Positions 1 to 25,267 of a DNA stretch of 25,267 bases are shown piece after piece. Both the position numbers and the translations under genes were made by a program. The DNA is taken from positions 1 to 25,267 of the forward strand of contig CAYGEV010000001.1 in the NCBI GenBank assembly GCA_964349035.1, given 5' to 3'. This DNA comes from an uncultured Candidatus Saccharibacteria bacterium (lineage in GTDB: Bacteria > Patescibacteriota > Minisyncoccia > Phycocordibacterales > Phycocordibacteraceae). Every line of letters starts with the position of its first letter. The stretch's first letter is position 1. The notes under the pieces are model-generated. The model had not been told where the DNA came from. It saw nothing but the letters and a program-made list of their open reading frames with translations, and did not search any database.

Positions 1-46
1 GTAGTGTACCATAATATGCACTCATCCCCCTCGGGGGAGGGATATT

Positions 47-2208: not shown

Positions 2209-2212
2209 CCGT

Positions 2213-3337: not shown

Positions 3338-3340
3338 TAT

Positions 3341-4105: not shown

Positions 4106-4120
4106 GATACTATACAAAGT

Positions 4121-4771: not shown

Positions 4772-4776
4772 CTTCT

Positions 4777-5598: not shown

Positions 5599-5622
5599 AG
5601 TCCACAGATTTTCTGGTACGAT
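5595..5622 (+). promoter_or_regulatory. Putative sigma70 promoter for the 5632 gene
   Basis: TTGAAG (5595-5600), 16-nt spacer, extended -10 TGgTACGAT (5614-5622), 9 nt before the ATG. Confidence 0.55.
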
Positions 5623-5631
5623 ATCTGTAAT

Positions 5632-7355: not shown

Positions 7356-7360
7356 AAGGT

Positions 7361-9904: not shown

Positions 9905-9922
9905 AGTGCCTCTATGCTACCA
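9896..9922. promoter_or_regulatory. Perfect 11-bp inverted repeat TGGTAGCATAG-tgcct-CTATGCTACCA covering the wzx start codon
   Basis: Read directly from the sequence. Each arm contains an extended -10-like TGnTAGCAT. The function is inferred. Confidence 0.6.
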
Positions 9923-10029
9923 CTCATTTGGAGATAATTCTTGGTGACCGCCTTATACCAGACGTAGCATGTTACTATATGTTGGTACTTATTAAATACA
10001 CACACTTTATGATTCTTAGAGGAAACATT

Positions 10030-11430: not shown

Positions 11431-11459
11431 GCAACTTTTTGTTTTGGACTACGAGCGCT

Positions 11460-12860
11460 ATGCTAGGCATGCAGGATGAGGAGATTGATGCAGATGTTTG
11501 TATTGTGGGCGCTGGGCCAGCAGGAATTGCGCTTGCTGAATTCCTCGCCGAGAATGGGAAGTCGGTATGTTTGCTTGAAAGCGGCGGGAAGGAGATGGGT
11601 ACCCACTCTTTCTTTTCAGAGTCATTACAAATAAAAGGAAGGTCTATAAGAGAAGACTCGCGTATCCGTGCGTTTGGCGGAACAACAAAAGTGTGGGCTG
11701 GTAGGTGGAAACTTTTTGATGCCATTGATTTCAGCGAGCGCGCCGACATTCCATTTTCCGGCTGGCCCTTCTCGCGAGAGGTATTGCTACCGTTCTACAA
11801 CGAAGCAGCTCGTCGTTTTGGAGCGCCCTGCACTACAGAATTTACTCATCCGAGCGTCAGTGAAGCAACGCAAGATTTTTGTGCAGACGGAGTATTTGAG
11901 CCGACCGTTTTTTGGACGTTCCCACGAAAGGAGGTAGATTTCGGAGCTCGTTTTTTCTCACGCGTGGCGAAAAACAAGAATATACAGTTGGTGCTCGACG
12001 CGACACTCGTCCACATCCAGACTTCCGGAGCACAGGTTGCCCATATGCGTTTTCGTTCACGAGCAGGGAAGGAGGGTACGGTGTGTGCTAAGAAATATGT
12101 ACTCGCGTGCGGTGGAATAGAAAACGCACGCCTCCTTCTCATCTCAAGTATCGGTGGGCCTGCCATAGGTAGATATTTTATGGATCACCCCAAAGGAGTG
12201 CTCGCTACTATCCGACCCTCACCAAAATTTATGTATGCAAATGAGTGGCTTCGAAAGGATGTGAGTAAGGGGTCGTATCGCGTCGGATTTCGGCTTTCAG
12301 AGAAGCTACAGTCTATGAAGGGAATTTTAAATTCTTACATCCAACTTGAACCAATATATTTAGAATCGTATTGGTATAAACTATTACGAAAACTTAGACT
12401 ACCAGTTCCACTACAACATGTTGCGGTCGTAAGTTATCTTGAACAGGTGCCGTCGAGAGAAAATCGTATTGTGCTTGTAGAAGAAAAAGATTCTTTTGGT
12501 TTGCCGAAAGCCGAGCTTTCTTGGAACATTAGTCCACTAGACACAAAGACTATTGTTGAATTACATTTTTTGTTACGCCAGCGCCTCAAGCAACTTGATC
12601 TTGGAATTCTTGATACAGAAATGCTAGAGATGTCTCCGCCCGGCTGGGAGCGACTACGCGACGCCTCGCATCACACAGGGACTACTCGTATGGGGAATGA
12701 CCCAGAGACCTCCGTGATAAATCCCGATGGAAGAGTCCATGAAATAGACAACCTGTATGTGGTGGGGAGCTCAGTCTTCCCAACCTCTGGGCATGCAAAC
12801 CCAACAGCGACAATTATTGCTTTAGCTCTTAAACTAGGGCATCATCTAGCTCATGGATAA
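11460..12860 (+). CDS. GMC-family FAD-dependent oxidoreductase
   Basis: VCIVGAGPAG, LLESG, FGGTT..W.G, LACGGIENARLLL, YFMDHP, catalytic His/Asn region HHTGTTRMG...SVFPTSGHANPT. Start is ATG 11460 or 11469. Confidence 0.9.
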   Translation: MLGMQDEEIDADVCIVGAGPAGIALAEFLAENGKSVCLLESGGKEMGTHSFFSESLQIKGRSIREDSRIRAFGGTTKVWAGRWKLFDAIDFSERADIPFSGWPFSREVLLPFYNEAARRFGAPCTTEFTHPSVSEATQDFCADGVFEPTVFWTFPRKEVDFGARFFSRVAKNKNIQLVLDATLVHIQTSGAQVAHMRFRSRAGKEGTVCAKKYVLACGGIENARLLLISSIGGPAIGRYFMDHPKGVLATIRPSPKFMYANEWLRKDVSKGSYRVGFRLSEKLQSMKGILNSYIQLEPIYLESYWYKLLRKLRLPVPLQHVAVVSYLEQVPSRENRIVLVEEKDSFGLPKAELSWNISPLDTKTIVELHFLLRQRLKQLDLGILDTEMLEMSPPGWERLRDASHHTGTTRMGNDPETSVINPDGRVHEIDNLYVVGSSVFPTSGHANPTATIIALALKLGHHLAHG

Positions 12861-13875
12861 GCGAAGGGTCATTATCATTGGTGCCGGTAAGCGGGTAGAG
12901 CGAGTGATACTGCCGGCCCTCTACTGTCTACAAGATGACGTTGAAATTGTAAATATCATGGCACGAACAGCTCGGCTTAAGTCATTTCTTGATAAACGTC
13001 TCGAGGTATCGATTGTTACGGAAGTAGCAGATGTCGTGTGGAGCTCTACGGAGCTTGTCATTATTGCTGTCCCTAAGGAGGCCGTAGCATCAGTTTTGCG
13101 TAAGATACCTCGACAATTCCGTTCACGACTAATACTTCTTGTCGATACGCCGGTTATTCCCCTACGCTCTCTTGGCACATTGCGCATATTTGATGACTTC
13201 AAGCGGGTTCTTGTTTCTGAGGACTACCTCGGAGTTCCTTTTTTTGAGGCAGCTAAAGTGTTTTTACAAGAGGGTAAAATCGGGGATCTTCATGCTATTC
13301 ACTTTATGCACAGCGGGTATCGGTACCATGCGCTTGCCGCAATAAAGCATCTTTCTGGTTGTTCTACATTTTCGTATATTCGTATGCGTAATCGAGGCGC
13401 AGTAGAGCGTGATATACGCACCGCAAACAATGTTAGAGCACATATTCTCGAGCCACGTGATTACCGTAACGGACGCACTCTCATCGTAGGAGCAAAGGGG
13501 ACAATCGGAGATTATCCTCTTCAGGGACTGAATCACAGGATGCTTGATACAAGTGTGGGGAGCGCAGTTTTTTTTGAAGGAAAGTTGGTAGGGAATAATG
13601 AGATCACAGACAAAGCTTTGCGCACACATGGAGACGGTGTTGTTCCGCAAGATCAAACCGACGCTGCCAAAGTTTATGGGTTTATGCGTCTCGTGCAAGC
13701 AAGCTTCGAGCCAGTATCCAATTATCATTACCAACCTCTTGAAGCAGTGTATGACAATCTTGCTTGCGCAGTAAGTGATCGATTCGGGTGGTTTTTCGAT
13801 ATTCCATTCGGGAAGACTTCAGTGGTCAAAATAGGTATCCGAATATTCGCGAGGATACTTTCTCGTCCATTATGA
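12853..13875 (+). CDS. Divergent Gfo/Idh/MocA-like NAD(P)-dependent oxidoreductase
   Basis: N-terminal Rossmann VIIIGAGKRV and LVIIAVP. LLVDTPV aligns with the usual EKP position; VSEDY and IGDL follow. The C-terminal half is not recognisable. Confidence 0.6.
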   Translation: MDKRRVIIIGAGKRVERVILPALYCLQDDVEIVNIMARTARLKSFLDKRLEVSIVTEVADVVWSSTELVIIAVPKEAVASVLRKIPRQFRSRLILLVDTPVIPLRSLGTLRIFDDFKRVLVSEDYLGVPFFEAAKVFLQEGKIGDLHAIHFMHSGYRYHALAAIKHLSGCSTFSYIRMRNRGAVERDIRTANNVRAHILEPRDYRNGRTLIVGAKGTIGDYPLQGLNHRMLDTSVGSAVFFEGKLVGNNEITDKALRTHGDGVVPQDQTDAAKVYGFMRLVQASFEPVSNYHYQPLEAVYDNLACAVSDRFGWFFDIPFGKTSVVKIGIRIFARILSRPL

Positions 13876-15734
13876 AAAAAACACACTGGGAGTACCTAGC
13901 AGATCAGGTGCACAATCTTGCGGGCGTACCTATCCTTGATCTCGGTTCTGGCAAAGGAGCGTTTCTTTTGCAGGCGGCAGAGCGCGGAGCAACAGTAACG
14001 GGGCTAGAAATAAGTGAGAAATATATACGTATGGCGAAGGAGCGACTTTCTTCTGCGGGATACCATGTGAGGATAGAACATGGAGCAGGGGAACACCTCC
14101 CTTTTCGTGATGCAGAATTTGGATTCATCAATATGTGCGAAGTCATTGAGCACGTTGAAGACCCCGACCGTCTTCTGTCGGAGGCGTATCGCGTACTTCA
14201 GTCTGGTGGGCACGCGTACCTAAGTGTCCCGAACCGTTTTGGTTTTCGAGATCAGCACTTCCATTTGTATTTGGTCAATTGGTTTCCGCGGGCTCTCTCT
14301 GATTTGTTTATCATTATGTTTGGGAAGCATAAAGACTATGCAGATACAGGTATCGGGCGACAAAGTCTTACCGACATGCATTACTTCACTTTCGGAACGA
14401 TTGTGCAGAGAGCGAGAGAAGTGGGATTTGAGGTGCAAGATATGCGCGTGACACGCATTACTCGAGAACTACATGGTATCAAACGATACCTCGCGCTCAT
14501 GGGGTATCGTATCCTGCGTGCATTTTATTTCGACTCATTTCATCTTTTGCTTACTAAGCCGACGAATGGTTCCCGTAGTCAGACTATAGATAATGTGACC
14601 ACGGGGGCATCGAAGCCCATCAAGGTTGCTCTCGTTATTAATGGGTTTCTTATCGGTGGGGCACAAAATGTGCTTTTGCAAATAATTAAGCGCATAGACC
14701 GCACACGCTTTACTCCCGTTTTGATTACACTTATGCGCAAACATAGCGACGAGAAGCAATATTTGTTTGACCAGCTTCCTGCCGGTACACAGATATATGA
14801 TTTGCGTTTCAAGGGATTTTTCGATATGCGCGCGTGGAGAATGCTCTGGCGCGCGCTCCGGGAGAGTAATCCTGACGTCGTGTTCTCAAACCTGTTTTTC
14901 AGCAATACGGTTATGCGGTTCCTGAAGCCACTTTTCGGCTATCGCGTGATTATTGCCGAGCATAATACTTATGTTGATAAGACATTGCTTCAGAAAGTTG
15001 CTGACTGGTGTCTTTCGTGGGTGACATACCGTATCGTCGCGGTATCGAAGACGGTTGCACGCTTTACGGCGAAGCAGGAGCACATATCTCCGTCAAAGTT
15101 TTTTATCAACCATGGCGGTATCGACATCAGGGCGATGCAGAAAGAAATGGATGAGTCTGATCCACTTGAGACGTGGAAGCGTACCGGATTTACTCCTCCG
15201 AATAAAATAATTCTTTCGGTTGCGCGCGTGGTGCCCCAGAAGAATCAGCGTCTCACGCTCGAGGGGTTCGCTCTCTTTGCTCCATCTCACCCCGAATACC
15301 GCCTCCTCGTTATCGGCGGGGGGAATTTGGTTCATGAGCTCGAAGCGTATGCGAAGGAGCTCGGTATCGGAGAGAAAGTGCGTTTCCTTGGATATCAGAA
15401 GCAGATGTATCCATTTTTCAAAATCTCTCACTTCTTCGTATCGACATCTCTTGTGGAAGGATTTGGTACTACCCACGTCGAGGCGCTTGTGGCGGGTCTC
15501 CCGCTCGTAAGTACGAAGACCGCGGGGCCTGACGAGATCATTAAAGAAGGGGTGAACGGCTTCTTTATTCCTGAGTACACGAAAGAAGCGGTGGCAGAGA
15601 GCCTAGCCAAGATGGCCGCTCTCGACCTCGAGCGTATGCGAGAGGCTGTTCGCAAATCAGCAGAACCATTCGCAATTGAGTGTATGATAGAGAAGTATGA
15701 AAAGCTTTTCGCTGATGCTGGCGCAAGTGTGTAA
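13872..15734 (+). CDS. Fused SAM methyltransferase + GT4 glycosyltransferase
   Basis: ATG 13872 overlaps the upstream TGA. N-domain ILDLGSGKG, LPFRDAEF, VIEHV, VLQSGG. C-domain GGAQ, VARVVPQKN, EGFGTTHVEALVAG. No stop between the domains. Confidence 0.88.
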   Translation: MKKTHWEYLADQVHNLAGVPILDLGSGKGAFLLQAAERGATVTGLEISEKYIRMAKERLSSAGYHVRIEHGAGEHLPFRDAEFGFINMCEVIEHVEDPDRLLSEAYRVLQSGGHAYLSVPNRFGFRDQHFHLYLVNWFPRALSDLFIIMFGKHKDYADTGIGRQSLTDMHYFTFGTIVQRAREVGFEVQDMRVTRITRELHGIKRYLALMGYRILRAFYFDSFHLLLTKPTNGSRSQTIDNVTTGASKPIKVALVINGFLIGGAQNVLLQIIKRIDRTRFTPVLITLMRKHSDEKQYLFDQLPAGTQIYDLRFKGFFDMRAWRMLWRALRESNPDVVFSNLFFSNTVMRFLKPLFGYRVIIAEHNTYVDKTLLQKVADWCLSWVTYRIVAVSKTVARFTAKQEHISPSKFFINHGGIDIRAMQKEMDESDPLETWKRTGFTPPNKIILSVARVVPQKNQRLTLEGFALFAPSHPEYRLLVIGGGNLVHELEAYAKELGIGEKVRFLGYQKQMYPFFKISHFFVSTSLVEGFGTTHVEALVAGLPLVSTKTAGPDEIIKEGVNGFFIPEYTKEAVAESLAKMAALDLERMREAVRKSAEPFAIECMIEKYEKLFADAGASV

Positions 15735-16601
15735 GTGAACCACATGTCTTTCTTTAGGCATCTGCAGTATAAAATCTTTCGTGCAATCGGTACCATACCC
15801 TGGATACGATGGGGATTGCGCTACCGGATCTTCCAATACATGAAGCGGACTGATTATGAATTTGTCGTCCCGTTCTTTGGTCGCGTGTACCGTGGGAATT
15901 TCGATAATGTCCTCGACAGGCATGTGTACTTCTATGGCGCTCATGAAAAAGAAGTCATGGAATATATGGGTTCGAGAATATCTTCTGAGAGCATCGTGCT
16001 TGATGTCGGTGCAAACGTCGGACACCACTCACTGTTTTTTGCTACAAAAGGGAAGGAGGTTCATGCGTTCGAGCCGAATCCAGAATATTGCGAACAATTC
16101 AAAGTATTGATGAAAGAAAACGGCATGACGAACGTGTTTTTGCATGCGGTGGGACTTGGCGAAGCGAAGAAAGATGCGGCGTATTACGCGCCCGAGAGGG
16201 AATCTCGAGGGGTCGGCTCTTTCATTGATAAACATTGGCCAACCAACAAAGAAGCGGGTATTCTCCCGATTGAAAAAGGGGATGATGTCGTTGCTGCTCT
16301 TGGCTTGTCGAGGGTCGACTTTATAAAAATAGATGTAGAACGCTACGAGCAGTTTGTACTGCAGGGTCTTCAAGAGACCATGAGAGTATTCCGCCCGATT
16401 ATAGTGATGGAGTATGCAAAGCAAGACTTTGAGACTGAAGATAGATTTCGTTCTCTGATACATGGATATACGCCATATGCGCTACGAGTAAACAAACCGT
16501 TTCTTTTCTTTTTCAATAATCCTACATGCCGGGTAGAACCGTTCGATATAAAGAAGTCTGGAAAGACTGAAGTACTCTTGGTGCCTTCAGACATATCTTG
16601 A
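15735..16601 (+). CDS. FkbM-family methyltransferase
   Basis: VLDVGANVGHHS, VHAFEPNP, VDFIKIDVERYEQFVLQG. Start is GTG 15735 or ATG 15744. Confidence 0.9.
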   Translation: MNHMSFFRHLQYKIFRAIGTIPWIRWGLRYRIFQYMKRTDYEFVVPFFGRVYRGNFDNVLDRHVYFYGAHEKEVMEYMGSRISSESIVLDVGANVGHHSLFFATKGKEVHAFEPNPEYCEQFKVLMKENGMTNVFLHAVGLGEAKKDAAYYAPERESRGVGSFIDKHWPTNKEAGILPIEKGDDVVAALGLSRVDFIKIDVERYEQFVLQGLQETMRVFRPIIVMEYAKQDFETEDRFRSLIHGYTPYALRVNKPFLFFFNNPTCRVEPFDIKKSGKTEVLLVPSDIS

Positions 16602-16645: not shown

Positions 16646-17617
16646 ATGAAATTTTTCGTCACGGGCGGGGCGGGGTTTATCGGGAGTACCTTTTGTGATC
16701 ATCTTTTACGTGGGGGACATGAGGTGGTATGTTTCGATAATCTTTCTACGGGGAAAGAGTTTTTCATACAGGATGCCTTACAGAATCCAAAGTTTCGATT
16801 TGTTAAGGGTGACATTACGATTCTAGAAGAAATAAAGAACGCAGTAGAGGAGGTAAAGCCAGACTGGGTGGCGCACTTCGCTGCTAATGCTGATGTGCGC
16901 CATGGACTTAAGCATCCTCGCAAAGATCTTGATGTGAACACTATTGGTACATGGAATGTACTTGAGGCGTGTCGTGGGGCAGGAGCAAAGAAGATTCTTT
17001 TCAGCTCAACCTCTGCTGTGTACGGAGACCCTATGATATTTCCAACACCAGAGAATGAGCCATTTCCAGAGCAAACGTCGCTCTATGGGGCTTCTAAGGC
17101 GGCTGCAGAGGGTCTTATTTCATCGTATTGTCACGGCTATGGGATGACGGCAGTCGTATTTCGTTTTGCATCGATCGTGGGTCCTCGCTATACACACGGG
17201 CACGTATTTGATTTTGTGAAGAAGTTGAAAGCAGATTCCACACGCATGGAGATCTTGGGAGATGGCAATCTGCCGAAATCTTATATTCACATCAAAGATC
17301 TCATGCGCGGACTCCAGGCGACTCTCGACGGAGCAGAGTCCGGAGCTCTTACGAAGCCGTTCAATGTTTTTAATATTGGTCACGAAGAAACACTTGTTAT
17401 TAAAGATAGTGCGACGATTATTGCAAAACGTATGGGACTCACGCCAACATTTCACTTCACTGGCGGTACGGGTGGGTGGATTGGTGACCACAAAGTTCTT
17501 CTCGATACGAAACGACTACGTTCCCTTGGGTGGAGTCCTGAACACTCAATTGAGAATGGGATTCTCGATACTGTAGATTATTTACTTGCGAATACTGACC
17601 TCTTGTTGCGAGAATAG
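16646..17617 (+). CDS. NAD-dependent nucleotide-sugar epimerase (extended SDR; candidate LmbM-like)
   Basis: TGGAGFIG, AANADV, SSTSAVYG, YGASK catalytic motif, HGHVFDF. Confidence 0.88.
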   Translation: MKFFVTGGAGFIGSTFCDHLLRGGHEVVCFDNLSTGKEFFIQDALQNPKFRFVKGDITILEEIKNAVEEVKPDWVAHFAANADVRHGLKHPRKDLDVNTIGTWNVLEACRGAGAKKILFSSTSAVYGDPMIFPTPENEPFPEQTSLYGASKAAAEGLISSYCHGYGMTAVVFRFASIVGPRYTHGHVFDFVKKLKADSTRMEILGDGNLPKSYIHIKDLMRGLQATLDGAESGALTKPFNVFNIGHEETLVIKDSATIIAKRMGLTPTFHFTGGTGGWIGDHKVLLDTKRLRSLGWSPEHSIENGILDTVDYLLANTDLLLRE

Positions 17618-17641
17618 GTAGGAGTGGTAGCATAAGCCGAT

Positions 17642-18628
17642 ATGATTATTACGCGGACTCCTTTCCGAATCACTTTGGGTGGTGGCGGTACCGACTTGCC
17701 TTCTTACTATGAGAAGCACGGCGGTTTCATTTTCTCAGCAGGCATCGATAAATATATGCATATAGATGTAAATCGACCTGCCTCGGACGATCTTATTCGT
17801 CTTAAGTATTCAGAGTCAGAAACCGTTGATAGCGTACATGAAGTTCGTCACCAAGTTGCAAAAGAGATATTGCACTTTGCTGGTATTGAGAAAAATATAG
17901 AGATAAGCTCCATCGCCGATATTCCATCAGGAACAGGGCTTGGTTCGTCGAGTTGTTACGCGGTTGGGCTTCTACACGCGCTCCATACGCTGAAGCGCGA
18001 TCATGTCCCACTCGAGCAATTAGCGGAAGAAGATTTCAAGATTGAAGCTGGTGTATTGAAACGTCCTATTGGTAAGCAAGATCCATATCTCGCAGCGCTC
18101 GGCGGGCTCACGGTTCTTGATATTGGTACGGACGGACAGGTGAAGGCACGCAAAGCAAATGCCTCTCTTGATGTAATAGACGAGTTAAATCAGAACCTAC
18201 TTGTGTTCTTCACTGGAGTTACGAGAAATGCTGATGTAATTTTGACTGAACAATCTAAGGCAATTGCACAGGATGATAAGGCGGTTACAGAGAGTATGCA
18301 TTATATTAAACAGCTCGGTTACGAGATCCTCGAGGCAGTGGAAGAAGGAAATCTTGATGAGGTGGGGACGAAGTTCCACGCGCACTGGCAACACAAAAAG
18401 AAGATCTCAACGAAAATGACCAATCCAGAGTTTGATACGATATACGACCACGCGCTCGCTAACGGTGCGCTTGGCGGTAAGATCTCTGGCGCTGGTGGAG
18501 GCGGATTCTTTACCTTCTATGTGCCAGAGAAACATCGAGCGTTTAGAGAGGCTATGAAGCAGTTCAATCTTCGCGAGATGCGTTACCGCTTTGATATGGA
18601 GGGCTCCAAGGTGCTTGCTAATTTTTAA
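17642..18628 (+). CDS. hddA: GHMP kinase, heptose-7-phosphate 1-kinase HddA / LmbP-like
   Basis: TRTPFRITLGGGGTD, IPSGTGLGSSS, IGKQD, GGKISGAGGGGF. Confidence 0.88.
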   Translation: MIITRTPFRITLGGGGTDLPSYYEKHGGFIFSAGIDKYMHIDVNRPASDDLIRLKYSESETVDSVHEVRHQVAKEILHFAGIEKNIEISSIADIPSGTGLGSSSCYAVGLLHALHTLKRDHVPLEQLAEEDFKIEAGVLKRPIGKQDPYLAALGGLTVLDIGTDGQVKARKANASLDVIDELNQNLLVFFTGVTRNADVILTEQSKAIAQDDKAVTESMHYIKQLGYEILEAVEEGNLDEVGTKFHAHWQHKKKISTKMTNPEFDTIYDHALANGALGGKISGAGGGGFFTFYVPEKHRAFREAMKQFNLREMRYRFDMEGSKVLANF

Positions 18629-18629
18629 T

Positions 18630-19361
18630 ATGACTCCCATGAAGAAGTTGCATGAGCTGAATATCAAGATATTTGCCGATGGTGCAGAAAAGGCAAGTAT
18701 GGTCGCGCTTTCAAAAGACCCTCTTATCAAAGGGCTCACAACGAACCCGACCTTGATGCGTAAGGCAGGTATTACGGACTATGCCGGGTTTGCAAAAGAA
18801 GTCCTTGCTGAGATTAAGGATAAGCCAGTATCGTTTGAAGTATTTTCTGACGACTTTGACGAGATGGAGCGTCAGGCGCGTATTATCGCGTCATGGGCGC
18901 CGAACGTCTACGTAAAAATTCCTATTACGAATACCAAGAAGGAACCATCATACGATTTGATTAAGAAACTCTCTGCAGACGGTATTAAGTTAAATGTGAC
19001 TGCCATCTTCTCGCTTGTGCAAGTACATCAGACGCGAGACGCGCTCAGAAAAGATGTCCCAGCTATTATTTCTGTATTTGCTGGTCGTATCGCGGACACG
19101 GGCGTGAACCCACTACCTCTTATGAAGCAGGCGAAGAATATCCTCAGGGACTGTCCAAATTTTGAATTGCTCTGGGCGAGCCCACGAGAGCTTCTAAACA
19201 TTTACCACGCTGAGGAGGCCGGCTCACATATTATTACTGTGACGCCAGATGTACTGAAAAAAGCTGAAAACATCGGTCTTGATCATGAGGAATTCTCGCT
19301 ACAAACAGTTAAGATGTTCTACGATGACGGACAGAAGGCCGGCTACACGCTTTACGAATAA
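18630..19361 (+). CDS. tal: Short (TalC-type) transaldolase; candidate LmbR-like
   Basis: IFAD, TTNPT, SFEV (Glu), Schiff-base VKIP, SVFAGR (Phe, the transaldolase rather than FSA signature). Start is ATG 18630 or 18639. Confidence 0.9.
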   Translation: MTPMKKLHELNIKIFADGAEKASMVALSKDPLIKGLTTNPTLMRKAGITDYAGFAKEVLAEIKDKPVSFEVFSDDFDEMERQARIIASWAPNVYVKIPITNTKKEPSYDLIKKLSADGIKLNVTAIFSLVQVHQTRDALRKDVPAIISVFAGRIADTGVNPLPLMKQAKNILRDCPNFELLWASPRELLNIYHAEEAGSHIITVTPDVLKKAENIGLDHEEFSLQTVKMFYDDGQKAGYTLYE

Positions 19362-19371
19362 TACTTTCACT

Positions 19372-19980
19372 ATGTACAAGGACTACATCAGCTCGTATCT
19401 CAAAGAAACGCAGATGATCGCGAAACAGCTTGATCAGAAAGAGATTAACTCGATGATTAAGATTTTGAAAAAAGTTCGTGACGATAAGGGACGTCTTTTT
19501 ATCCTTGGTATTGGTGGCGGCGCAGGGCACGCAAGTCATGCGGTGAATGATTTTAGAAAGCTCGCTTCCATTGAGGCATATACGCCTGCAGATAATGTGT
19601 CAGAGATTACGGCCCGCGCAAACGACGATGGGTTCCATACGATTTTCTCAAATTGGCTTCTTGGGAGTAATCTCGCCAAGAAAGACGCGGTATTGGTATT
19701 TTCGGTAGGAGGAGGAAATGCCGAGAAGAACGTAAGTGCAAACATTGTTGAGGCGCTCAAGCTCTGTAAGAAAGTGGGCACCAAGATATTGGGAATTGTT
19801 GGGCGTGATGGAGGATACACTGCCAAGGTCGCGCATGCCTGCGCAATTGTACCAACCGTAAATCATGAGAATGTAACGCCACACACGGAAGGGTATCAGG
19901 CGGTCATCTGGCACCTTATCGTCTCGCACCCGAAGTTTCGTTCACAAAAGGGTAAGTGGGAGTCCGTCGGAAAGAAATAA
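19372..19980 (+). CDS. gmhA: SIS-domain phosphosugar isomerase, divergent GmhA / LmbN isomerase-like
   Basis: LFILGIGGG, ITARAND, VLVFSVGGGN, ILGIVGRDGG, C-terminal His. ATG 19372 follows the tal stop. Confidence 0.85.
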   Translation: MYKDYISSYLKETQMIAKQLDQKEINSMIKILKKVRDDKGRLFILGIGGGAGHASHAVNDFRKLASIEAYTPADNVSEITARANDDGFHTIFSNWLLGSNLAKKDAVLVFSVGGGNAEKNVSANIVEALKLCKKVGTKILGIVGRDGGYTAKVAHACAIVPTVNHENVTPHTEGYQAVIWHLIVSHPKFRSQKGKWESVGKK

Positions 19981-20516
19981 TGAGCCCCACAGTCTTTTTC
20001 GACCGAGACGGGACACTCATCGAACAAGTCGATATACTTACTCTTCCTTCGCAGGTTAAGTTGTTGCCTGGCGTTGCGGAGGCCATTGCAGATTTGAATC
20101 GTAGAGGATACCTTGTCATCGGTATTACGAATCAGCCAATCATAGAAAAGGGACTTTTATCACAAGAAGGTCTGTTGGAGATAAACACAGAGCTGTCCAG
20201 ACAGCTTGCCGAGAGTGGCGCTCACCTAGATTCTATCTACACGTGTCCGCACCAGTATCGTACAGAAGGGCAGTGTAGATGCCGTAAGCCAGGGATCGGG
20301 CTCATCGAACAAGCACAAAGAGAGTTCTCTATAGAGATGCCTAAAAGCTGGATGGTCGGGGACCGGTTGCGCGACGTAGAAACCGGCAAGCGCGCTGGTC
20401 TAAAAACAATCTTGGTATCTACTGGAGGGCCGAGTAAAGACGATGAGTTTTTTCCTGATACGAAAGCCGACTTTGTTGCGTCAGGCTTGCACGCTGTAGG
20501 CACCCTTATCTCGTAA
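19980..20516 (+). CDS. gmhB: Heptose 1,7-bisphosphate phosphatase GmhB / LmbK-like (HAD)
   Basis: FFDRDGTL, ITNQ, Zn site CPH...CRCRKP, MVGDRLRD. TAATG overlap with gmhA. Confidence 0.92.
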   Translation: MSPTVFFDRDGTLIEQVDILTLPSQVKLLPGVAEAIADLNRRGYLVIGITNQPIIEKGLLSQEGLLEINTELSRQLAESGAHLDSIYTCPHQYRTEGQCRCRKPGIGLIEQAQREFSIEMPKSWMVGDRLRDVETGKRAGLKTILVSTGGPSKDDEFFPDTKADFVASGLHAVGTLIS

Positions 20517-20547
20517 AAACGGCCGTCCCTGGTGGGGACGGCCGTTT
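20517..20547. terminator. Probable bidirectional intrinsic terminator
   Basis: Perfect 13-bp stem AAACGGCCGTCCC / GGGACGGCCGTTT with a 5-nt loop, between the convergent stops at 20516 and 20551. Confidence 0.8.
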
Positions 20548-20550
20548 GGT

Positions 20551-21285
20551 TCAGGTAACCACTTGGGGTTTCGCATCGCCGTAGACATCGCGGACGATCT
20601 TCGAAATCCCGGTTGCTTCGCGTGCCCAGTTGCGGGCAAACGATTGCGAGTTGCGCAGTGCTTCGACGCGCGGAGTGTATTGCTCGCGATCTTCCGCAAG
20701 CAATACTTCTTCCGCTTCAAGTACTACAACGCGGAGACTGCGGTACTGCGGGTACACGGACATGTGTTTCAACACGTACGTTGCCACCCTGGGAGCATGG
20801 ACGCCGACAGCAACTATTGCAATACTGTCGAGACCACGTTCAATCGCGAGATCGAACAAGTTCAACAGTTCTTGCCGAGTGTTAGATGGCATTGAGAGCT
20901 GGCGCTCACGTGGCCACACCACGATTTCTGGCAAGAGCTCGGTTTCAGCGAACCGCGCTTTGAGCATTGCGCTCATCACTTCACTTTCCGACGGAGCGTC
21001 GAGTTTCGCCAAGTAGTCGGCACGATGACCGTAGGCGCACACGGCGACTTCCGGTTGGTACTGTTGAATCAGGAGGCATGCTGCCTCCAAGATCATTTCG
21101 CCACCACCCACCATGCAGTACGGACTTTCGTCGTCGACCGGCACGCGAACTCGCAAATGCGCTGAGTTTGTGTCACACAGTTCGAGGTCTTCAGTGAGAC
21201 CCCACGAACTGGTCTCTGCCGGTGGAGCATTGGCGGACAACATCTGGATCCCGCGACCCAGCCCTACAATCACGTCGAATGACAT
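20551..21285 (-). CDS. Hypothetical protein, possibly YdcF/DUF218 (ElyC/SanA-like) fold
   Basis: DVIVGLGRG, SESEVM, SNTRQE, IVAVGVHAPR echo DUF218 motifs. Start is ATG 21285 or GTG 21291. Sampled lines are about 57-60% GC. Confidence 0.5.
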   Translation of the reverse strand: MSFDVIVGLGRGIQMLSANAPPAETSSWGLTEDLELCDTNSAHLRVRVPVDDESPYCMVGGGEMILEAACLLIQQYQPEVAVCAYGHRADYLAKLDAPSESEVMSAMLKARFAETELLPEIVVWPRERQLSMPSNTRQELLNLFDLAIERGLDSIAIVAVGVHAPRVATYVLKHMSVYPQYRSLRVVVLEAEEVLLAEDREQYTPRVEALRNSQSFARNWAREATGISKIVRDVYGDAKPQVVT

Positions 21286-21462
21286 GAGCACCTCTCTTCT
21301 TCAGGGTTAAAAAACGTTGATTTTTATTACACTTTCAAGCGACTAGCTGGGTGTAGGGTAGACCCTAACCCCCTATCTACCAGTATAACATGTTTTCAAC
21401 ATAAATGCAAGCTCTCTGCAAGGGCGTACTTTCGTGGTATTTTTACCTTACGAAACGACTCT

Positions 21463-22785
21463 ATGCAGTCTCCTCTTACTATTGGCGTTATTGGGTTGTG
21501 GCACCTCGGAGAAATATATTCTGCGGGTCTTGCAGAATTGGGACACGCGGTTATTGGCGTCGACGAAGATGCTGCTCGCGTTGAGAAGTTGAATGCGGGC
21601 ATTCCTCCGCTACCTGAGCCAAACCTTGAAGCGTTGCTTTCGAAACATCTCCAAGCGAAACGGCTTCGCTATGCGACAGAGTATGCATCGCTCAAAGAAT
21701 GTTCTGTCGTGTGGCTCACCATCGACACGCCTGTGAAAGATAACGATGAGGTGGATCTGTCTTCTGTTTTTATGGCAGTTGATTCTGCAATTCCGCATCT
21801 ACAAGACAATGTTGTATTTGTCGTTTCAAGTCAACTTCCAGTAGGTACCTCAGAAAAGATTATCAGTCGTATAGGTGAGGCACGTCCCGAACTTTCTTTT
21901 GACTATGTATATACTCCTGAAAATCTACGTCTTGGAGAAGCGGTCAAGTGTTTCCTTGACCCGGCTCGTGTTATTGTGGGCGCGAGTTCTGAACGCGCTG
22001 TCGAGACCATGCGTCATATATTTGCGACACTCCCACATCCGGCAGAAATCATTTCCATGAAGCCGGCATCTGCGGAGATGGGCAAGCACGCGCTTAATGC
22101 TTTTCTCGCTACAGAGATCTCTTTCGCAAATGATCTTGCAGACATAGCTGAAAGAGTTGGTGCGGACATGCTCGAGGTAACGCGCGTGCTCAAATCAGAT
22201 CCGCGCATTGGCCCAAAGGCATATCTTGACGCTGGGGTAAGCTTCTCAGGAGGTACGTTAAACCGTGATGTAAAGATACTCACTAATCTTGCGCGAGAGC
22301 ACTCTATCCAACCATCCGTCATCGAGTCTATCTATCTTAAAAACGAGGCGCGCAAAGGCTTGATTGCCTCAAAACTATTCCAAGATCTCGGCTATCTGCA
22401 GGGGAAGACGGTGGCACTTTTTGGTCTTACGTATAAACCAGGTACAAAGACCTTGCGACGTTCATATCCTCTTGAGGTCGCTCGAGAGCTTCTCGGGAAA
22501 GGAGCTTCAGTACGTCTATACGATCCGGTAGCAGACGAACATGAAATCGGGATATCTGGAGTCGTATTTTCTAATAATGCATATGAGGCGGCGTCGGGTT
22601 CAGATGCCATTGTGGTGCTCACCACGTGGGCAGAATTTAAGGACTTAGACTTTAAGCGTTTAGGCACGCAAGCAAAGTCCGGGGCCATATTTTTTGACAC
22701 ATCAAATTTTCTAGTCTCTAAGGAGGGTAAAATTATAGAAGCGGGATTTGTATATAAGGGCGTAGGTCGTGCAGAAAAGGTATAA
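21463..22785 (+). CDS. UDP-glucose/GDP-mannose dehydrogenase-family protein lacking the catalytic Cys (candidate LmbL-like)
   Basis: IGVIGLWHLG, TPENLRLG, AEMGKHALNAFLA, DPRIG, GLTYKPGT, YDP. GGTL replaces GGSC. Confidence 0.85.
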   Translation: MQSPLTIGVIGLWHLGEIYSAGLAELGHAVIGVDEDAARVEKLNAGIPPLPEPNLEALLSKHLQAKRLRYATEYASLKECSVVWLTIDTPVKDNDEVDLSSVFMAVDSAIPHLQDNVVFVVSSQLPVGTSEKIISRIGEARPELSFDYVYTPENLRLGEAVKCFLDPARVIVGASSERAVETMRHIFATLPHPAEIISMKPASAEMGKHALNAFLATEISFANDLADIAERVGADMLEVTRVLKSDPRIGPKAYLDAGVSFSGGTLNRDVKILTNLAREHSIQPSVIESIYLKNEARKGLIASKLFQDLGYLQGKTVALFGLTYKPGTKTLRRSYPLEVARELLGKGASVRLYDPVADEHEIGISGVVFSNNAYEAASGSDAIVVLTTWAEFKDLDFKRLGTQAKSGAIFFDTSNFLVSKEGKIIEAGFVYKGVGRAEKV

Positions 22786-22794
22786 TCTTCTCAT

Positions 22795-23637
22795 ATGAAA
22801 CTCCTGGGCAAGAAAGCACTCATTACTGGCGGTAGTCGTGGTATCGGGCGTGCTGTCGCGGAAGAGTTCTTGAAAGAAGGAGCAACGGTGTTTCTTGTCG
22901 CGAATGAGCCGGAAGAATTGCCACGAACCGTTTCGGAGCTTTCCATGGCATTTCCTAATGTGGCTGGAGCGGTAGGAGATGTTTCAAACGAGCAGGACGT
23001 CAATCGCGTAACGAATGAGGCGATAGAAAAGATGGGTACCATTGATATCCTTGTGAACGCCGCAGGTATATATGGACCAATCGGGCCGATGCTCGATGTT
23101 GATACGGCACATTGGCGAAGAACATATGAAGTCAATGTGTTCGGTGCACTCTATATGGTTCGTGCAGTTGGGGCGCAAATGAAAAAGAAAGGAAAAGGGA
23201 AGATCGTTATCTTCTCTGGTGGGGGCGATGGTCCGTTTCCTAATTTTACTGCATATAATTCTTCAAAGGTTGCGATCGTGCGCCTTACTGAAACTCTTGC
23301 AGAAGAGTTACTTCCTTTTGGAATTGAGATTAACGCAATAGCTCCGGGGAGCGTCAATACAAAGTTTCTTGACGAAGCGCTTGAGGCGGGGGAGGAGAGA
23401 GTTGGTAAGAAAAAATACCAACAATTTCTTAAACAAAAGCAGGATGGAGGCACGCCACGAGAAAAAGTCGCGGAGCTTTGTTTATTTCTAGGCTCATCTG
23501 CCTCAGACGGACTCTCAGGGAAATTAGTAAGTGTCCTCTGGGATTCGTGGCGAGAGTGGACTGCAGAAAAGATACAAGAAATAATGAAGACTCCTGCATT
23601 TACGCTCCGTCGAGTTGATCCTTTTCGTAAAGACTAA
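22795..23637 (+). CDS. Classical short-chain dehydrogenase/reductase
   Basis: TGGSRGIG, DILVNAAG, YNSSK, INAIAPG. Confidence 0.9.
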   Translation: MKLLGKKALITGGSRGIGRAVAEEFLKEGATVFLVANEPEELPRTVSELSMAFPNVAGAVGDVSNEQDVNRVTNEAIEKMGTIDILVNAAGIYGPIGPMLDVDTAHWRRTYEVNVFGALYMVRAVGAQMKKKGKGKIVIFSGGGDGPFPNFTAYNSSKVAIVRLTETLAEELLPFGIEINAIAPGSVNTKFLDEALEAGEERVGKKKYQQFLKQKQDGGTPREKVAELCLFLGSSASDGLSGKLVSVLWDSWREWTAEKIQEIMKTPAFTLRRVDPFRKD

Positions 23638-23638
23638 T

Positions 23639-24655
23639 ATGAGTACTCGCTCTAATAAAAAAAATATCAATCTAGCCCTCATTGGTGCTGGTGGCATAGG
23701 TACGTTGTGGGCTGAGGCGTTGAGAGGCACTAAAGGGATTATTCTTAGTGCGGTCGTTGATATTGATGAACAAAAAGCGCTCGCCATCGCGAAGCTTTTT
23801 CCCAACTGCATAACGGTAAAGGACTGGAAGCAGGTCATGGCTGATAAGAGTATCGACGCGATACTTGTTGCTACGCCACATAAGTGGCTTGCGCCGATTT
23901 CTTTTGCCGCACTCTCATCTGGTAAGCATGTGCTATGCGAAAAGCCGTCTGGCATAACATCAGCAGAAGTGCAAAAGAATGTGCGTATCGCGAAGAAGAA
24001 GAATCTTATATATATGCCAGGGTTCAATCACCGGTATCATCCAGCATATATACAAGCAAGAGAGATTTTCGAAAAAGGCGGCATCGGGAACATCTCATTC
24101 GTGCGTGCCAGGTATGGGTTTGGCGGGCGTCCAGGATATGGCAAGGAATGGCGATTTTCTAAAGACATTGCTGGAGGAGGCGAACTTATGGATCAGGGTA
24201 TGCATATGATTGATATGGCGAGATGGTTTCTTGGTGATTTCAAACAAGTGCATGGATTCGCCGAGAACTTTTTCTGGGGAGGGGAGGTAGAAGACAATGG
24301 CTTTCTTCTTATGCGCACGGAAACTGGTAAGGTAGCCTCAATACACGTGAGCTGGACCAATTGGGAATGGGTACATTCGTTTGAGATATTCGGCGACGCA
24401 GGGTATCTTCTTATTGATGGTCTCGATCAGCGTTATCAAGGGCCTGAACGTCTCACGTGGGGGAAGCGTGACGTAACCTTTTCACGACCAATAGAAAAGA
24501 AGTATGTATTTGGTAAGGAAAGGAAGCATGACTCGCTCAGGCGTGAAATGGAGGACTTTGTACGTGCGGTGCGAGGTGATGCCGTACTCAGGGCTTCTGG
24601 GAATGACGCTCATGCAGTACTGCAGATAGTTGAGAAAATATACAAGAAACAATGA
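23639..24655 (+). CDS. Gfo/Idh/MocA oxidoreductase (candidate LmbZ-like)
   Basis: IGAGGIG, ATPH, HVLCEKP, GFNHRYHP, GGGELMDQGMHMID. Confidence 0.9.
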   Translation: MSTRSNKKNINLALIGAGGIGTLWAEALRGTKGIILSAVVDIDEQKALAIAKLFPNCITVKDWKQVMADKSIDAILVATPHKWLAPISFAALSSGKHVLCEKPSGITSAEVQKNVRIAKKKNLIYMPGFNHRYHPAYIQAREIFEKGGIGNISFVRARYGFGGRPGYGKEWRFSKDIAGGGELMDQGMHMIDMARWFLGDFKQVHGFAENFFWGGEVEDNGFLLMRTETGKVASIHVSWTNWEWVHSFEIFGDAGYLLIDGLDQRYQGPERLTWGKRDVTFSRPIEKKYVFGKERKHDSLRREMEDFVRAVRGDAVLRASGNDAHAVLQIVEKIYKKQ

Positions 24656-25267
24656 AAACTCTCGAAAATAAAAAAGCGGTGATTACTGGAGGAAGTCGCG
24701 GTATCGGCAAGGCAATTGCCGTAGAATATCTGAAAGAGGGAGCTGAAGTGTTCTTAGTCGCACGTAGCGCAGAAGAACTCAAACAGACTCAGACTGAGTT
24801 GCAGACATTCGGTATCGTCCACAGCAGGGTCGTTGATATGTCGCAAGAAGGAGAGGTGAAGCTTTTAGCTGATGAAATTTCGAGTACATGTGGCACCATT
24901 GATATCTTAGTGAATGCCGCTGGGGTGTATGGACCTATTGGTCCGAGTACTGATGTTAATCCAAAAGAGTGGAGACAGGCGCTCGATGTAAACCTGTTTG
25001 GGCCATTTCTCGGCATACATTTTCTTGTACCACTTATGAAAAACAACACTGGAGGCGTTGTCATTAACTTTGTTGGTGGTGGTGAGGGTGCATATCCAAA
25101 CGCAAGTTCATACGTGGCCGCAAAGGGCGGTATTGCTCGCCTTACAGAGACGGTGGCGGCTGAACTCAAAGACCGCAAGATATGGGTAAATGCTATTTCT
25201 CCTGGAGCGGTGAATACGAAACTCCTTGAAGATTGGAGGAAGTTGCAGACCTCGGATCATTTCTATT
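24652..25267 (+). CDS. Short-chain dehydrogenase/reductase paralogous to 22795, runs off the window edge, possible frameshift near 25232
   Basis: Absent from the ORF track (no stop in the window). Hand translation: MKTLENKKAVITGGSRGIG...DILVNAAGVYGPIGP...YVAAK...VNAISPGAVNT. ATGA overlap with the upstream gene. Confidence 0.85.
   Translation, partial: MKTLENKKAVITGGSRGIGKAIAVEYLKEGAEVFLVARSAEELKQTQTELQTFGIVHSRVVDMSQEGEVKLLADEISSTCGTIDILVNAAGVYGPIGPSTDVNPKEWRQALDVNLFGPFLGIHFLVPLMKNNTGGVVINFVGGGEGAYPNASSYVAAKGGIARLTETVAAELKDRKIWVNAISPGAVNTKLLEDWRKLQTSDHFY

Follow-up and report, generated by a model that had tools for sequence, protein, structure and literature searches.

A transaldolase-containing sugar-nucleotide cassette, possibly for octose synthesis, in the surface-glycan locus of a Patescibacteria genome

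The window, i.e., the whole 25,267-nucleotide stretch of DNA analysed, belongs to a CPR/Patescibacteria host with a 0.6-Mb genome (G000). Positions 16646-25267 are occupied by a tight operon embedded within a surface-glycan locus, which also features GT4 and GT2 transferases, a Wzx-like flippase, many methyltransferases and a GT-C protein. Pfam and NCBIfam profile searches located all the families that the original prediction had described as clustered here. In operon order, the genes are:

16646-17617, + strand: GalE-like extended-SDR sugar-nucleotide epimerase, 323 aa (Pfam Epimerase, 1.2e-49)
17642-18628, + strand: GHMP sugar-phosphate anomeric kinase of the HddA/LmbP type, 328 aa (GHMP_kinases_N/C)
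18630-19361, + strand: transaldolase (TAL), 243 aa (TAL_FSA, 4.9e-43; TIGR02134, 328.8 bits, cut-off 282)
19372-19980, + strand: SIS-domain isomerase, ketose-phosphate to aldose-phosphate, GmhA/LmbN type, 202 aa (SIS_2)
19956-20516, + strand: HAD-IIIA sugar bisphosphate phosphatase of the GmhB/LmbK type (PRK08942, HAD-SF-IIIA); translation probably begins with the ATG at 19980
20551-21291, - strand: DUF218-like protein (weak DUF218 match, 2.8e-4)
21463-22785, + strand: UDP-Glc/GDP-Man dehydrogenase-family protein, Ugd-like (three UDPG_MGDP_dh domains)
22795-23637, + strand: classical SDR (SDR1), 280 aa (adh_short, 2.3e-52)
23615-24655, + strand: Gfo/Idh/MocA oxidoreductase, the candidate LmbZ counterpart (both GFO_IDH_MocA domains, N and C); translation probably begins with the ATG at 23639
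24652-25267, + strand: second classical SDR (SDR2), cut by the contig end (adh_short, 4.7e-47)

The epimerase carries the GalE-type motif SSTSAVYG...YGASK; the Ser, Tyr and Lys residues are present and the Asp-Glu pair of dehydratases is absent. Its nearest solved structures are the UDP-glucose 4-epimerases 3EHE and 8RDG. It is a variable member of the cassette, sharing no more than 26-45% identity with its counterparts in related cassettes, in which orthologues of the HAD phosphatase are also present. The DUF218-like gene is kept within the cassette on the opposite strand, and copies 37-53% identical to it are found in loci L005, L007, L011 and L027.

The TAL gene starts with an ATG one base past the kinase stop codon. 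The protein retains the catalytic Asp, Glu and Schiff-base Lys residues, and has Phe, not Tyr, at the aldolase-switch position. It is the sole PF00923 match in the genome. Of the 301 Patescibacteria genomes sampled, just 62 contain a TAL of any kind. Among five sampled members of the host's family and order, each recorded as 100% complete, no TAL was detected. Non-cassette TALs of CPR mostly adjoin a transketolase gene. G000 itself carries transketolase and RpiB, and can thus supply sedoheptulose-7-P without a TAL. Rarity, absence from close kin, this alternative supply and the transketolase linkage of the other TALs together indicate that the window TAL is no part of the host lineage's housekeeping gene set.

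In the TAL tree, 17 cassette TALs are split from 22 others, representing two phyla, by a 99/99 branch. The window TAL lies in the cassette-linked clade; the five TALs nearest to it on the tree are all cassette-embedded. By sequence, therefore, cassette TALs appear as a lineage distinct from the transketolase-linked TALs. They feature the motif S(V/I/L)F(A/G)GR, versus SPF(V/I/L)GR in other TALs, and sit on long branches; both traits would fit an altered acceptor specificity, whichever the acceptor. TALs accept various aldose phosphates (PMC5854111), and one with such a divergent motif and branch length might prime a sugar that is neither a heptose nor a lincosamide-type octose, for instance a nonulose from hexose-6-P, a pentulose or another ketose. 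We consider this improbable, as it has no precedent and the downstream enzymes match the octose pathway family for family.

The cassette is conserved, as a survey of synteny revealed. Epimerase, kinase, TAL, SIS, HAD, Ugd-like, SDR, Gfo/Idh/MocA and nucleotidyltransferase (NTP) genes are syntenic in L005/L006, L007/L008 (Liptonbacteria), L010, L011, L026 and L027. Because the same set recurs in many unrelated contigs, the clustering is not due to chance. TAL is linked to SIS and kinase genes in 17 loci from several phyla. SIS and TAL are a few hundred bases apart in most loci examined; they are separated by one to three cassette genes in L010, L013, L014, L021, L042 and L043. A core of TAL, SIS, kinase and HAD genes, with or without the NTP gene, occurs without Ugd-like and Gfo/Idh/MocA genes in CPR (L013, L014 and L016). 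The core module is also found in Rokubacteria (L024, with the same GT2 and PMT_2 neighbours as those described below), in Acidobacteria (L042), in L023 and L043, and within an NRPS gene cluster of Actinomadura rubrisoli (L021), a strain that has a separate, long housekeeping TAL besides that of the module. As the TAL-primed core is widespread outside CPR, the window belongs to a broad cassette family for sugar nucleotides, of which no prior description was found in the literature searched. TAL-less cassettes of four genes (kinase, SIS, HAD and NTP) are also present in Patescibacteria (L017 and L019; partial in L018).

The Ugd-like protein features the motif GGTLNRD where Ugd 4A7P has GGSCFPKD, and the catalytic Cys aligns with Thr265. 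The catalytic Lys/Asn (KHALN) and Asp residues are kept. GGTL(G/N)RD is found in all of the 120 best homologues, and the earlier claim of a Ugd homologue devoid of the catalytic Cys is thus borne out. The Cys-to-Thr change should make the second oxidation, to a carboxylate, impossible; the enzyme should perform a single NAD-dependent oxidation of an alcohol to a carbonyl. TAL is nearby in every Cys-less Ugd-like locus examined, i.e., in eight Cys-to-Thr loci and in the Cys-to-His locus L012. Across divergent genomes, the Ugd-like, SDR and Gfo/Idh/MocA genes travel together with those for TAL, SIS, kinase and phosphatase. Orthologues of the Gfo/Idh/MocA gene (36-61% identity) adjoin the Ugd-like gene in seven of nine loci. 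SDR1 adjoins it in 8/8 Cys-to-Thr loci examined (36-75% identity in L005, L007, L010, L011, L025, L026 and L027) and is absent from L012.

Pairs of Ugd-family and Gfo/Idh/MocA proteins are common in UDP-ManNAc3NAcA-type pathways. The window pair could accordingly be read as of the WbpA/WbpB type, serving a 2,3-diamino or 3-keto uronic acid, and the TAL, the only one in the genome, as a housekeeping enzyme placed there by chance. We regard this as very improbable. No uronic acid can be formed without the catalytic Cys, and a domain search of the window found neither an aminotransferase nor an acetyltransferase. Moreover, the TAL-SIS-kinase linkage is kept in the 17 loci, housekeeping TALs of CPR are transketolase-linked and phylogenetically separate, and no TAL was detected in the sampled relatives from the host's family and order.

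The same search agrees with the original prediction that two SDRs are present and an LmbS-like aminotransferase is not. SDR1, conserved beside the Ugd-like gene, would suit a ketoreductase that takes the place of the aminotransferase LmbS. SDR2, an SDR1 paralogue (51% identity), is specific to the window and does not belong to the conserved cassette set.

Contig C8, read on its reverse strand, very probably carries the next part of the operon, with SDR2 followed by a nucleotidyltransferase. At the end of C8 lies the coding sequence for the last 95 aa of an SDR, which align to residues ~193-280 of SDR1, and the next gene (C8:15509-16228) is the only NTP_transferase gene of the genome. A polyprenyl-phosphate GT2 and a PMT_2-type GT-C follow. 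In L005, a 74%-identical relative, the NTP_transferase gene comes immediately after the Gfo/Idh/MocA gene. Logan contigs end at 25193, and window positions 25219-25265 match an internal part of another, unrelated contig of high depth; the final ~45 nt appear to be chimeric. The SDR2 tail past about 25193-25234 is unreliable.

Likeness to the lincosamide (Lmb) enzymes was judged at the level of Pfam families. Seven Lmb families had been matched to the window; the match holds, and becomes one of eight (R, N, P, K, O, M, L and Z) once C8 is joined. By analogy, we propose the epimerase as the counterpart in role of LmbM, the C8 nucleotidyltransferase as that of LmbO and the Ugd-like protein as that of LmbL, the last on family-level similarity.

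Four of the enzymes score best against heptose models, all below the cut-offs: the kinase against HddA (159 bits, cut-off 600), the isomerase against GmhA (46 bits, cut-off 209), the phosphatase against GmhB (PRK08942, 136 bits, cut-off 178; HAD-SF-IIIA, 112 bits) and the C8 nucleotidyltransferase against HddC (88 bits, cut-off 300). The operon may thus encode a GDP- (or NDP-)D-glycero-D-manno-heptose pathway in which TAL boosts or secures sedoheptulose-7-P and the Ugd-like, Gfo/Idh/MocA and SDR proteins tailor the heptose, for instance by oxidation at C6 or C7 followed by reduction or epimerisation. Source annotations of the kinase family read heptose-7-P kinase. Sedoheptulose-7-P, a heptose precursor, is what canonical TALs make from erythrose-4-P, and the window TAL passes TIGR02134, whose Staphylococcus and Coxiella members presumably serve the pentose-phosphate pathway as ordinary transaldolases. 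With four in five sampled CPR genomes lacking TAL, a self-contained operon could bring its own sedoheptulose-7-P source, and L027 pairs the cassette with ADP-heptose-type genes (PfkB kinase, GT9 heptosyltransferase-type and cytidylyltransferase-like). Trees also fell short of a full separation: TALs set themselves apart from transketolase-linked ones, but kinases did not split cleanly by TAL linkage. Kinase orthologues in TAL-containing cassettes are 50-80% identical, yet L014 falls among TAL-less kinases and the TAL-less L022 among TAL-linked ones. Similarly, window-type SIS proteins score 46-67 bits to GmhA versus 102-109 for those of TAL-less cassettes, but the SIS proteins from L012 and L014, at 91-95 bits, overlap with this TAL-less group.

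We nevertheless hold the heptose reading to be rather unlikely. All four matches fall far below equivalog cut-offs, the G000 transketolase already provides sedoheptulose-7-P, the phylum also has heptose-type cassettes devoid of TAL, and a dedicated TAL of distinct lineage is retained even in Actinomadura, beside the housekeeping one. Neither for heptose pathways nor for gene clusters that use sedoheptulose-7-P are we aware of a characterised case with a TAL, and searching found none. To our knowledge, the lincosamide pathway is the only characterised one in which a TAL gene forms part of a sugar-nucleotide operon. Joint action of Ugd-family and Gfo/Idh/MocA proteins on a higher sugar has a characterised precedent only in octose 6,8-dehydration, a reaction that requires a C8 sugar. 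This dehydration is reportedly detailed by Wang et al. (PNAS 2020).

In lincosamide biosynthesis, LmbR and LmbN convert ribose-5-P and fructose-6-P or sedoheptulose-7-P to octulose and octose 8-P, LmbK and LmbO lead to GDP-octose, and LmbM, LmbL, CcbZ and CcbS turn this into GDP-lincosamide (PMC7014725, PMC5854111, PMC4351081, PMC12945683). It seems to us about an even chance that this operon is devoted to making, along the lines of that pathway, a nucleotide-activated higher-carbon sugar, with an octose as the likeliest product, destined for a heavily methylated cell-surface glycan. Equally balanced is our confidence in an NDP-octose route with LmbL/LmbZ-type 6,8-dehydration and SDR ketoreduction, all steps of which are drawn from protein families and gene context. 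TAL would move a C3 unit from fructose-6-P or sedoheptulose-7-P to ribose-5-P, giving octulose-8-P (LmbR role), which the SIS isomerase would convert to octose-8-P (LmbN role). The GHMP kinase would phosphorylate C1 (LmbP role), the HAD phosphatase would remove the terminal phosphate (LmbK role) and the C8 nucleotidyltransferase would form NDP-octose (LmbO role). The GalE-like epimerase may then adjust stereochemistry (LmbM role), and the Cys-less Ugd homologue, by one oxidation, and the Gfo/Idh/MocA protein would carry out 6,8-dehydration to a 6-keto-8-deoxy sugar (LmbL/LmbZ role). The conserved SDR would reduce the keto group, which is transaminated in the lincomycin pathway. The product would pass to the GT4/GT2 transferases and Wzx-like flippase of the locus, and possibly to the GT2 and GT-C pair of C8. 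The originally predicted NDP-octose thus gains from the Lmb families, the synteny and the separate TAL lineage, and loses from the heptose models that four enzymes match best. Chain length is unreadable from sequence, and C8 instead of C7 is favoured by analogy.

Compared with known systems, the cassette shares with the lincosamide octose pathway of Streptomyces lincolnensis and S. caelestis (LmbR, LmbN, LmbP, LmbK, LmbO, LmbM, LmbL, LmbZ/CcbZ and LmbS/CcbS) the clustering of eight families, i.e., TAL, SIS isomerase, GHMP kinase, HAD phosphatase, nucleotidyltransferase, SDR epimerase, UDPG/GDP-Man-dehydrogenase and Gfo/Idh/MocA, as well as a TAL embedded in a sugar-nucleotide operon. In contrast, it has a classical SDR with its paralogue and a DUF218 protein rather than an LmbS-type aminotransferase, its isomerase and oxidoreductase lack a carrier-protein fusion, and it lies in the surface-glycan locus of a small CPR genome, not in an antibiotic gene cluster. 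The GDP-heptose pathway (GmhA/HddA/GmhB/HddC) has the same four core families and reaction order and supplies the best-scoring curated models, albeit with sub-threshold scores; it lacks the TAL, the Cys-less Ugd homologue and the Gfo/Idh/MocA partner, and its TAL-less cassettes occur separately in Patescibacteria. The TIGR02134 'Staphylococcus-type' transaldolases resemble the window TAL in score, catalytic residues and switch Phe, but the window TAL and its kin sit in sugar-nucleotide cassettes. UDP-glucose/GDP-mannose 6-dehydrogenases (Ugd, AlgD and WbpA) share with the Ugd-like protein the three-domain fold (~35% identity to solved Ugd) and the NAD-binding and Lys/Asn/Asp catalytic residues; their nucleophilic Cys is Thr in the window and His in L012.

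The genome that contains the window (G000; 597 kb in 86 contigs, listed as 89% complete) encodes proteins whose closest homologues carry the labels Patescibacteria, Paceibacterota or Liptonbacteria, which identifies the organism as a member of the CPR. The window spans the entire contig C1 of this genome. The gene content of the first two thirds of the window identifies this region as a surface-glycan locus, and includes the following features:

1-16600: three GT4s, a GT2, a polysaccharide deacetylase, a PseB/FnlA-like dehydratase, a LamG protein and a GMC oxidoreductase
within 1-16600, minus strand: a Wzx-type flippase
4121-8616 and 13788-16601: at least seven methyltransferases, including two of the FkbM type, at least four of the class-I SAM type and one fused to a GT4

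The number of methyltransferases is unusually high, and their abundance points to a heavily O-methylated glycan. In CPR bacteria, surface chemistry probably governs attachment to the host.

All the families that the original prediction assigned to the cassette at 16646-25267 were recovered by family and NCBIfam profile matches. The proposed clustering is real and strongly non-random, as the same set recurs syntenically elsewhere; since the genes overlap or are 1-24 nt apart, the cassette is likely an operon. Two short-chain dehydrogenases (SDR1 and SDR2) are present and, as previously stated, members of the aminotransferase family are missing from the window; none was found on C8 either, a contig of the same genome that very probably continues the window.

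The epimerase is GalE-like, as it retains the Ser/Tyr/Lys motif and lacks the dehydratase Asp-Glu pair. The best curated matches of the kinase, the SIS isomerase and the HAD phosphatase are HddA (159 bits, cut-off 600), GmhA (46 bits, cut-off 209) and GmhB (136 bits, cut-off 178), respectively, and the nucleotidyltransferase encoded on C8 scores 88 bits against the HddC model (cut-off 300). The transaldolase (TAL) exceeds the TIGR02134 cut-off (329 vs 282). In alignment columns, the catalytic D and E and the Schiff-base K (YVKIP) are retained, and the position of the fructose-6-P aldolase Tyr is occupied by F (SVFAGR). By its aligned residues, the protein is predicted to be a class-I transaldolase as opposed to a fructose-6-P aldolase. 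The Phe/Tyr rule at this position derives from the TalB F178Y and TacTAL F132Y variants. An FSA-type aldolase using free dihydroxyacetone was discarded, because the switch position is Phe and not Tyr.

In two-step dehydrogenases, the Cys of the GGxCxxKD motif forms the thiohemiacetal/thioester. True UDP-glucose and GDP-mannose 6-dehydrogenases carry this catalytic Cys, whereas the Ugd homologue of the window features Thr265 at the same position (GGTLNRD aligned with GGSCFPKD), the Lys/Asn and Asp residues being kept. The GGTL(G/N)RD signature is found in all 120 closest homologues (50-76% identical), and Thr likewise replaces Cys in two of the loci compared, L010 and L011. The absence of Cys implies that the enzyme would catalyse a single alcohol oxidation only. 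For the same reason, a uronic acid pathway of the WbpA/WbpB type was rejected; such a pathway, or coincidence, is highly improbable. Searches of the ESM Atlas with the Ugd-like protein returned generic dehydrogenase clusters only.

The families listed in the original prediction include no nucleotidyltransferase. The sole NTP_transferase gene of the genome occupies C8:15509-16228, and 280 nt separate it from the contig end. An open frame running off the same end encodes the last 95 aa of a classical SDR and aligns to residues ~193-280 of SDR1. The sequence TTGAAGATT is common to the window and to reverse-complemented C8, at precisely the point at which SDR2 (…NTKLLED|LLNAGPEK…) would run on. 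Logan contigs from the source study reach only position 25193 of the window, and the 25219-25265 interval aligns, at all but 4 positions, with an internal part of an unrelated 16.5-kb contig whose depth is about five times higher. Consequently, the 25193-25267 end of the window looks chimeric, and the last 11 SDR2 codons (WRKLQTSDHFY) are probably not real. In L005, a 74%-identical relative, the NTP_transferase gene directly follows the Gfo/Idh/MocA (Gfo) gene. From the SDR tail, the shared junction and the L005 gene order, we conclude that the nucleotidyltransferase most plausibly comes after SDR2. The adjoining part of C8 is organized as follows:

C8 (L004) 12653-16510: the partial SDR gene and the nucleotidyltransferase gene, then genes for an AglJ/ArnC-like polyprenyl-phosphate GT2, a PMT_2-type GT-C, a methyltransferase and a Wzy_C-TPR protein

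MurB, SecA and GatB are also encoded on C8 and show that the organism is a bacterium. The genes that follow the nucleotidyltransferase suggest delivery via a lipid-phosphate-sugar to an extracytoplasmic acceptor. The same GT2 and PMT_2 neighbours flank the module found in a Rokubacteria locus (L024).

The synteny survey that had been proposed was carried out, and revealed that the cassette recurs in many loci with shuffled gene order. The full cassette (epimerase, kinase, TAL, SIS, HAD, Ugd-like, SDR, Gfo, nucleotidyltransferase and, often, DUF218) is found in L005/L006, L007/L008 (Liptonbacteria, GCA_001818625.1), L010 (genome G071), L011 (G148), L026 and L027. In L010, nine cassette genes form a single run, and the TAL is merely 29% identical to that of the window. 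The pairing of Ugd-like and Gfo genes (21463-22785 and 23615-24655 in the window) is kept in L005, L007, L010, L011, L012, L026 and L027. L025 carries Ugd-like, SDR and TAL genes, with no Gfo gene within 10 kb. A TAL gene is found near the Ugd-like gene in all nine Cys-less loci examined, eight of the Cys-to-Thr type and one, L012, of the Cys-to-His type.

Additional features were noted in some loci. The DUF218-like gene of the window (20551-21291, minus strand) lies on the opposite strand and is conserved inside the cassettes of L005, L007, L011 and L027. A small PF05635 gene ("23S rRNA intervening sequence protein"), not found in the window, separates SIS and HAD in L005 (7929-8297), L006 (3863-4231) and L027 (14723-15100). 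The His-containing Ugd homologue of L012 (GGHLERD; G244:C9, ~9395-10700), a second Cys-less variant, adjoins Gfo, SIS and TAL genes, and another, ordinary TAL is encoded elsewhere in the G244 genome. In L027, ADP-heptose-type genes (PfkB kinase, HAD, GT9 heptosyltransferase and cytidylyltransferase-like; 1-2759 and 19867-20370) sit beside the full cassette, and two higher-sugar routes may coexist in this locus.

Five families (TAL, SIS, kinase, HAD and nucleotidyltransferase), located at 17642-20516 and C8:15509-16228 in the window genome, form a complete cluster in L005, L010, L013, L014, L016, L026, L027 and L042. In L023 and L024, one member each is unconfirmed, and in L021 and L043 TAL, SIS, kinase and HAD are clustered with no adjacent nucleotidyltransferase. 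This core occurs without Ugd-like and Gfo genes in three CPR genomes (G018, G192 and G101). Outside CPR, it is found in L024, in L042 (Acidobacteria), on two large contigs (L023 and L043) and in an Actinomadura cluster (L021). Both Actinomadura-type TALs selected for long contigs alone lie inside the core module (L042 and L043). Going beyond the original prediction, these loci show the TAL-primed core to be a module widely distributed over several phyla, in which its genes now bear heptose, transaldolase or Ugd annotations.

L021, a cluster of Actinomadura rubrisoli with NRPS genes (GCA_004349215.1, SMKU01000004.1), includes an epimerase, kinase, SIS, HAD, TAL, a nucleotidyltransferase, at least two Gfo/Idh/MocA proteins, a sulfotransferase, a GT20 and aminotransferases. 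It is an uncharacterised cluster and a candidate for a new natural product containing a higher-carbon sugar.

Of 301 evenly sampled Patescibacteria genomes, only 62 encode a TAL of any kind (G154, flagged as unpublished, is one of the 62 and was counted in this tally only). The five genomes sampled from the family and order of the window, all listed as 100% complete, yielded none. A transketolase and RpiB are encoded on contig C2 of G000, so sedoheptulose-7-P (S7P) could be obtained without TAL. The transketolase match (C2 3075-3977, with RpiB just upstream at 1816-2238) holds one TGA and one TAA, and may correspond to a split N/C-subunit gene or to a broken gene.

Most CPR TALs outside cassettes have a transketolase gene no more than a few kb away, and Actinomadura carries a separate long housekeeping TAL in addition to that of the module. 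In a maximum-likelihood tree of 39 TALs, labelled by gene context and modestly sampled (characterised TALs, such as TalB, the Staphylococcus TAL and LmbR, are not among the sequences), a 99/99 branch separates 17 cassette-linked TALs from 12 other CPR and 10 Actinomycetota proteins. The latter, used as outgroup, are of the kind retrieved with the Actinomadura TAL from 400 Actinomycetota genomes, which yielded 33-44%-identical short TALs only and no lmb-like cluster; these tallies take in the unpublished genomes G302, G349 and G389. By the active site, cassette TALs feature S(V/I/L)F(A/G)GR and other TALs SPF(V/I/L)GR. A housekeeping TAL placed in the cassette by chance was dismissed, given the separate lineage, the conserved linkage to the module and the lack of TAL in the sampled genomes of the same family and order.

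The kinase family is present in 15 of the 301 Patescibacteria genomes. Every kinase 50-63% identical to that of the window has a TAL as its neighbour. Another three (G029, G279 and G128), 39-44% identical, belong to kinase-SIS sets, some with HAD and nucleotidyltransferase, that have no TAL, as does the kinase set of a Myxococcales locus (L022). Against GmhA, SIS proteins of TAL-less sets score 102-109 bits and window-type proteins 46-67 bits, with L012 and L014 at 91-95. A tree of the kinases places 14 of the 15 TAL-linked sequences together (94/99); L014 joins the kinases of TAL-less sets, and L022, which has no TAL, lies within the TAL-linked group. Because of these exceptions, the split by TAL linkage is not clean, and the sequence comparisons are suggestive of it.

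These data bear on the possibility that the product is a heptose instead of an octose. All core enzymes are most similar to heptose enzymes, and S7P is the normal TAL product, but the TAL is conserved in the cassette, while TAL-less sets exist elsewhere in the phylum; we regard a heptose as a possible but less likely product. The occurrence of a dedicated TAL lineage across phyla, even beside a housekeeping TAL, argues that the enzyme makes a ketose phosphate of the pathway's own, and not S7P. The sole biochemical precedent for such a compound is octulose-8-P, formed from ribose-5-P; a product of another chain length is improbable. The NDP-octose model originally put forward, drawn by analogy, is in our analysis the best reading available, with about an even chance of being correct.

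We tentatively propose that, in Patescibacteria, Rokubacteria, Acidobacteria and other groups, the dedicated TAL lineage primes the synthesis of NDP-octoses destined for cell-surface glycans; loci that also carry the Cys-less Ugd-like, Gfo and SDR genes would yield an 8-deoxy-octose. In this scheme, the lincomycin/celesticetin sugar pathway would have branched off from the primary-glycan module towards secondary metabolism, as would the NRPS cluster of Actinomadura. We found no earlier description of this scheme, nor any paper that links a TAL with HddA-type clusters or reports homologues of LmbR/LmbN in CPR. If the NDP-octose model is true, eight-carbon sugars are ordinary building blocks of surface glycans in several little-studied phyla, thousands of genes annotated as "heptose-7-phosphate kinase", "transaldolase" or "UDP-glucose dehydrogenase" are misnamed, and the lincosamide sugar pathway can be traced to its evolutionary source. 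A conserved CPR accessory locus also gains a defined, testable function, and glyco-engineering gains new enzymes, namely a TAL accepting ribose-5-P, a Ugd-family oxidase working in a single step and an enzyme pair for 6,8-dehydration. Should the product be a heptose, the finding would amount only to a novel tailoring branch in an established pathway.

To our knowledge, octoses made by chain extension have been described only in a handful of antibiotics, and lincosamides are the sole known case of the LmbR-type route. The LmbL/CcbZ pair reportedly carries out 6,8-dehydration (Wang et al. 2020), a step that the Cys-less Ugd-like and Gfo proteins would mirror. Homologue searches from the Actinomadura TAL and kinase retrieved no Lmb protein, and a representative search for kinase homologues, with high-GC picks, yielded Actinomadura and Myxococcales proteins but likewise none of the Lmb set. 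The lmbZ primer (PMC7014725) had a single match in genome contigs, within a 1118-aa ORF of a 6-kb "Deltaproteobacteria" MAG contig, which was set aside as a chance match and not lmb.

The GmhA/HddA/GmhB/HddC pathway relies on four genes and draws S7P from central metabolism, whereas the window cassette adds a conserved TAL, and its proteins score below all four equivalog cut-offs. The lincosamide sugar pathway consists of the LmbR transaldolase, the LmbN C8 isomerase, the LmbP kinase, the LmbK phosphatase, the LmbO guanylyltransferase, the LmbM epimerase, the LmbL dehydrogenase and the LmbZ oxidoreductase (PMC4351081, PMC12945683, PMC7014725, PMC5854111). All eight families are matched, at family level, in the window and C8 combined. 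The two systems differ at the 6-keto intermediate, which is converted by the LmbS aminotransferase in the lincosamide pathway, whereas the cassette features a classical SDR at a conserved position that would act as a ketoreductase in place of LmbS.
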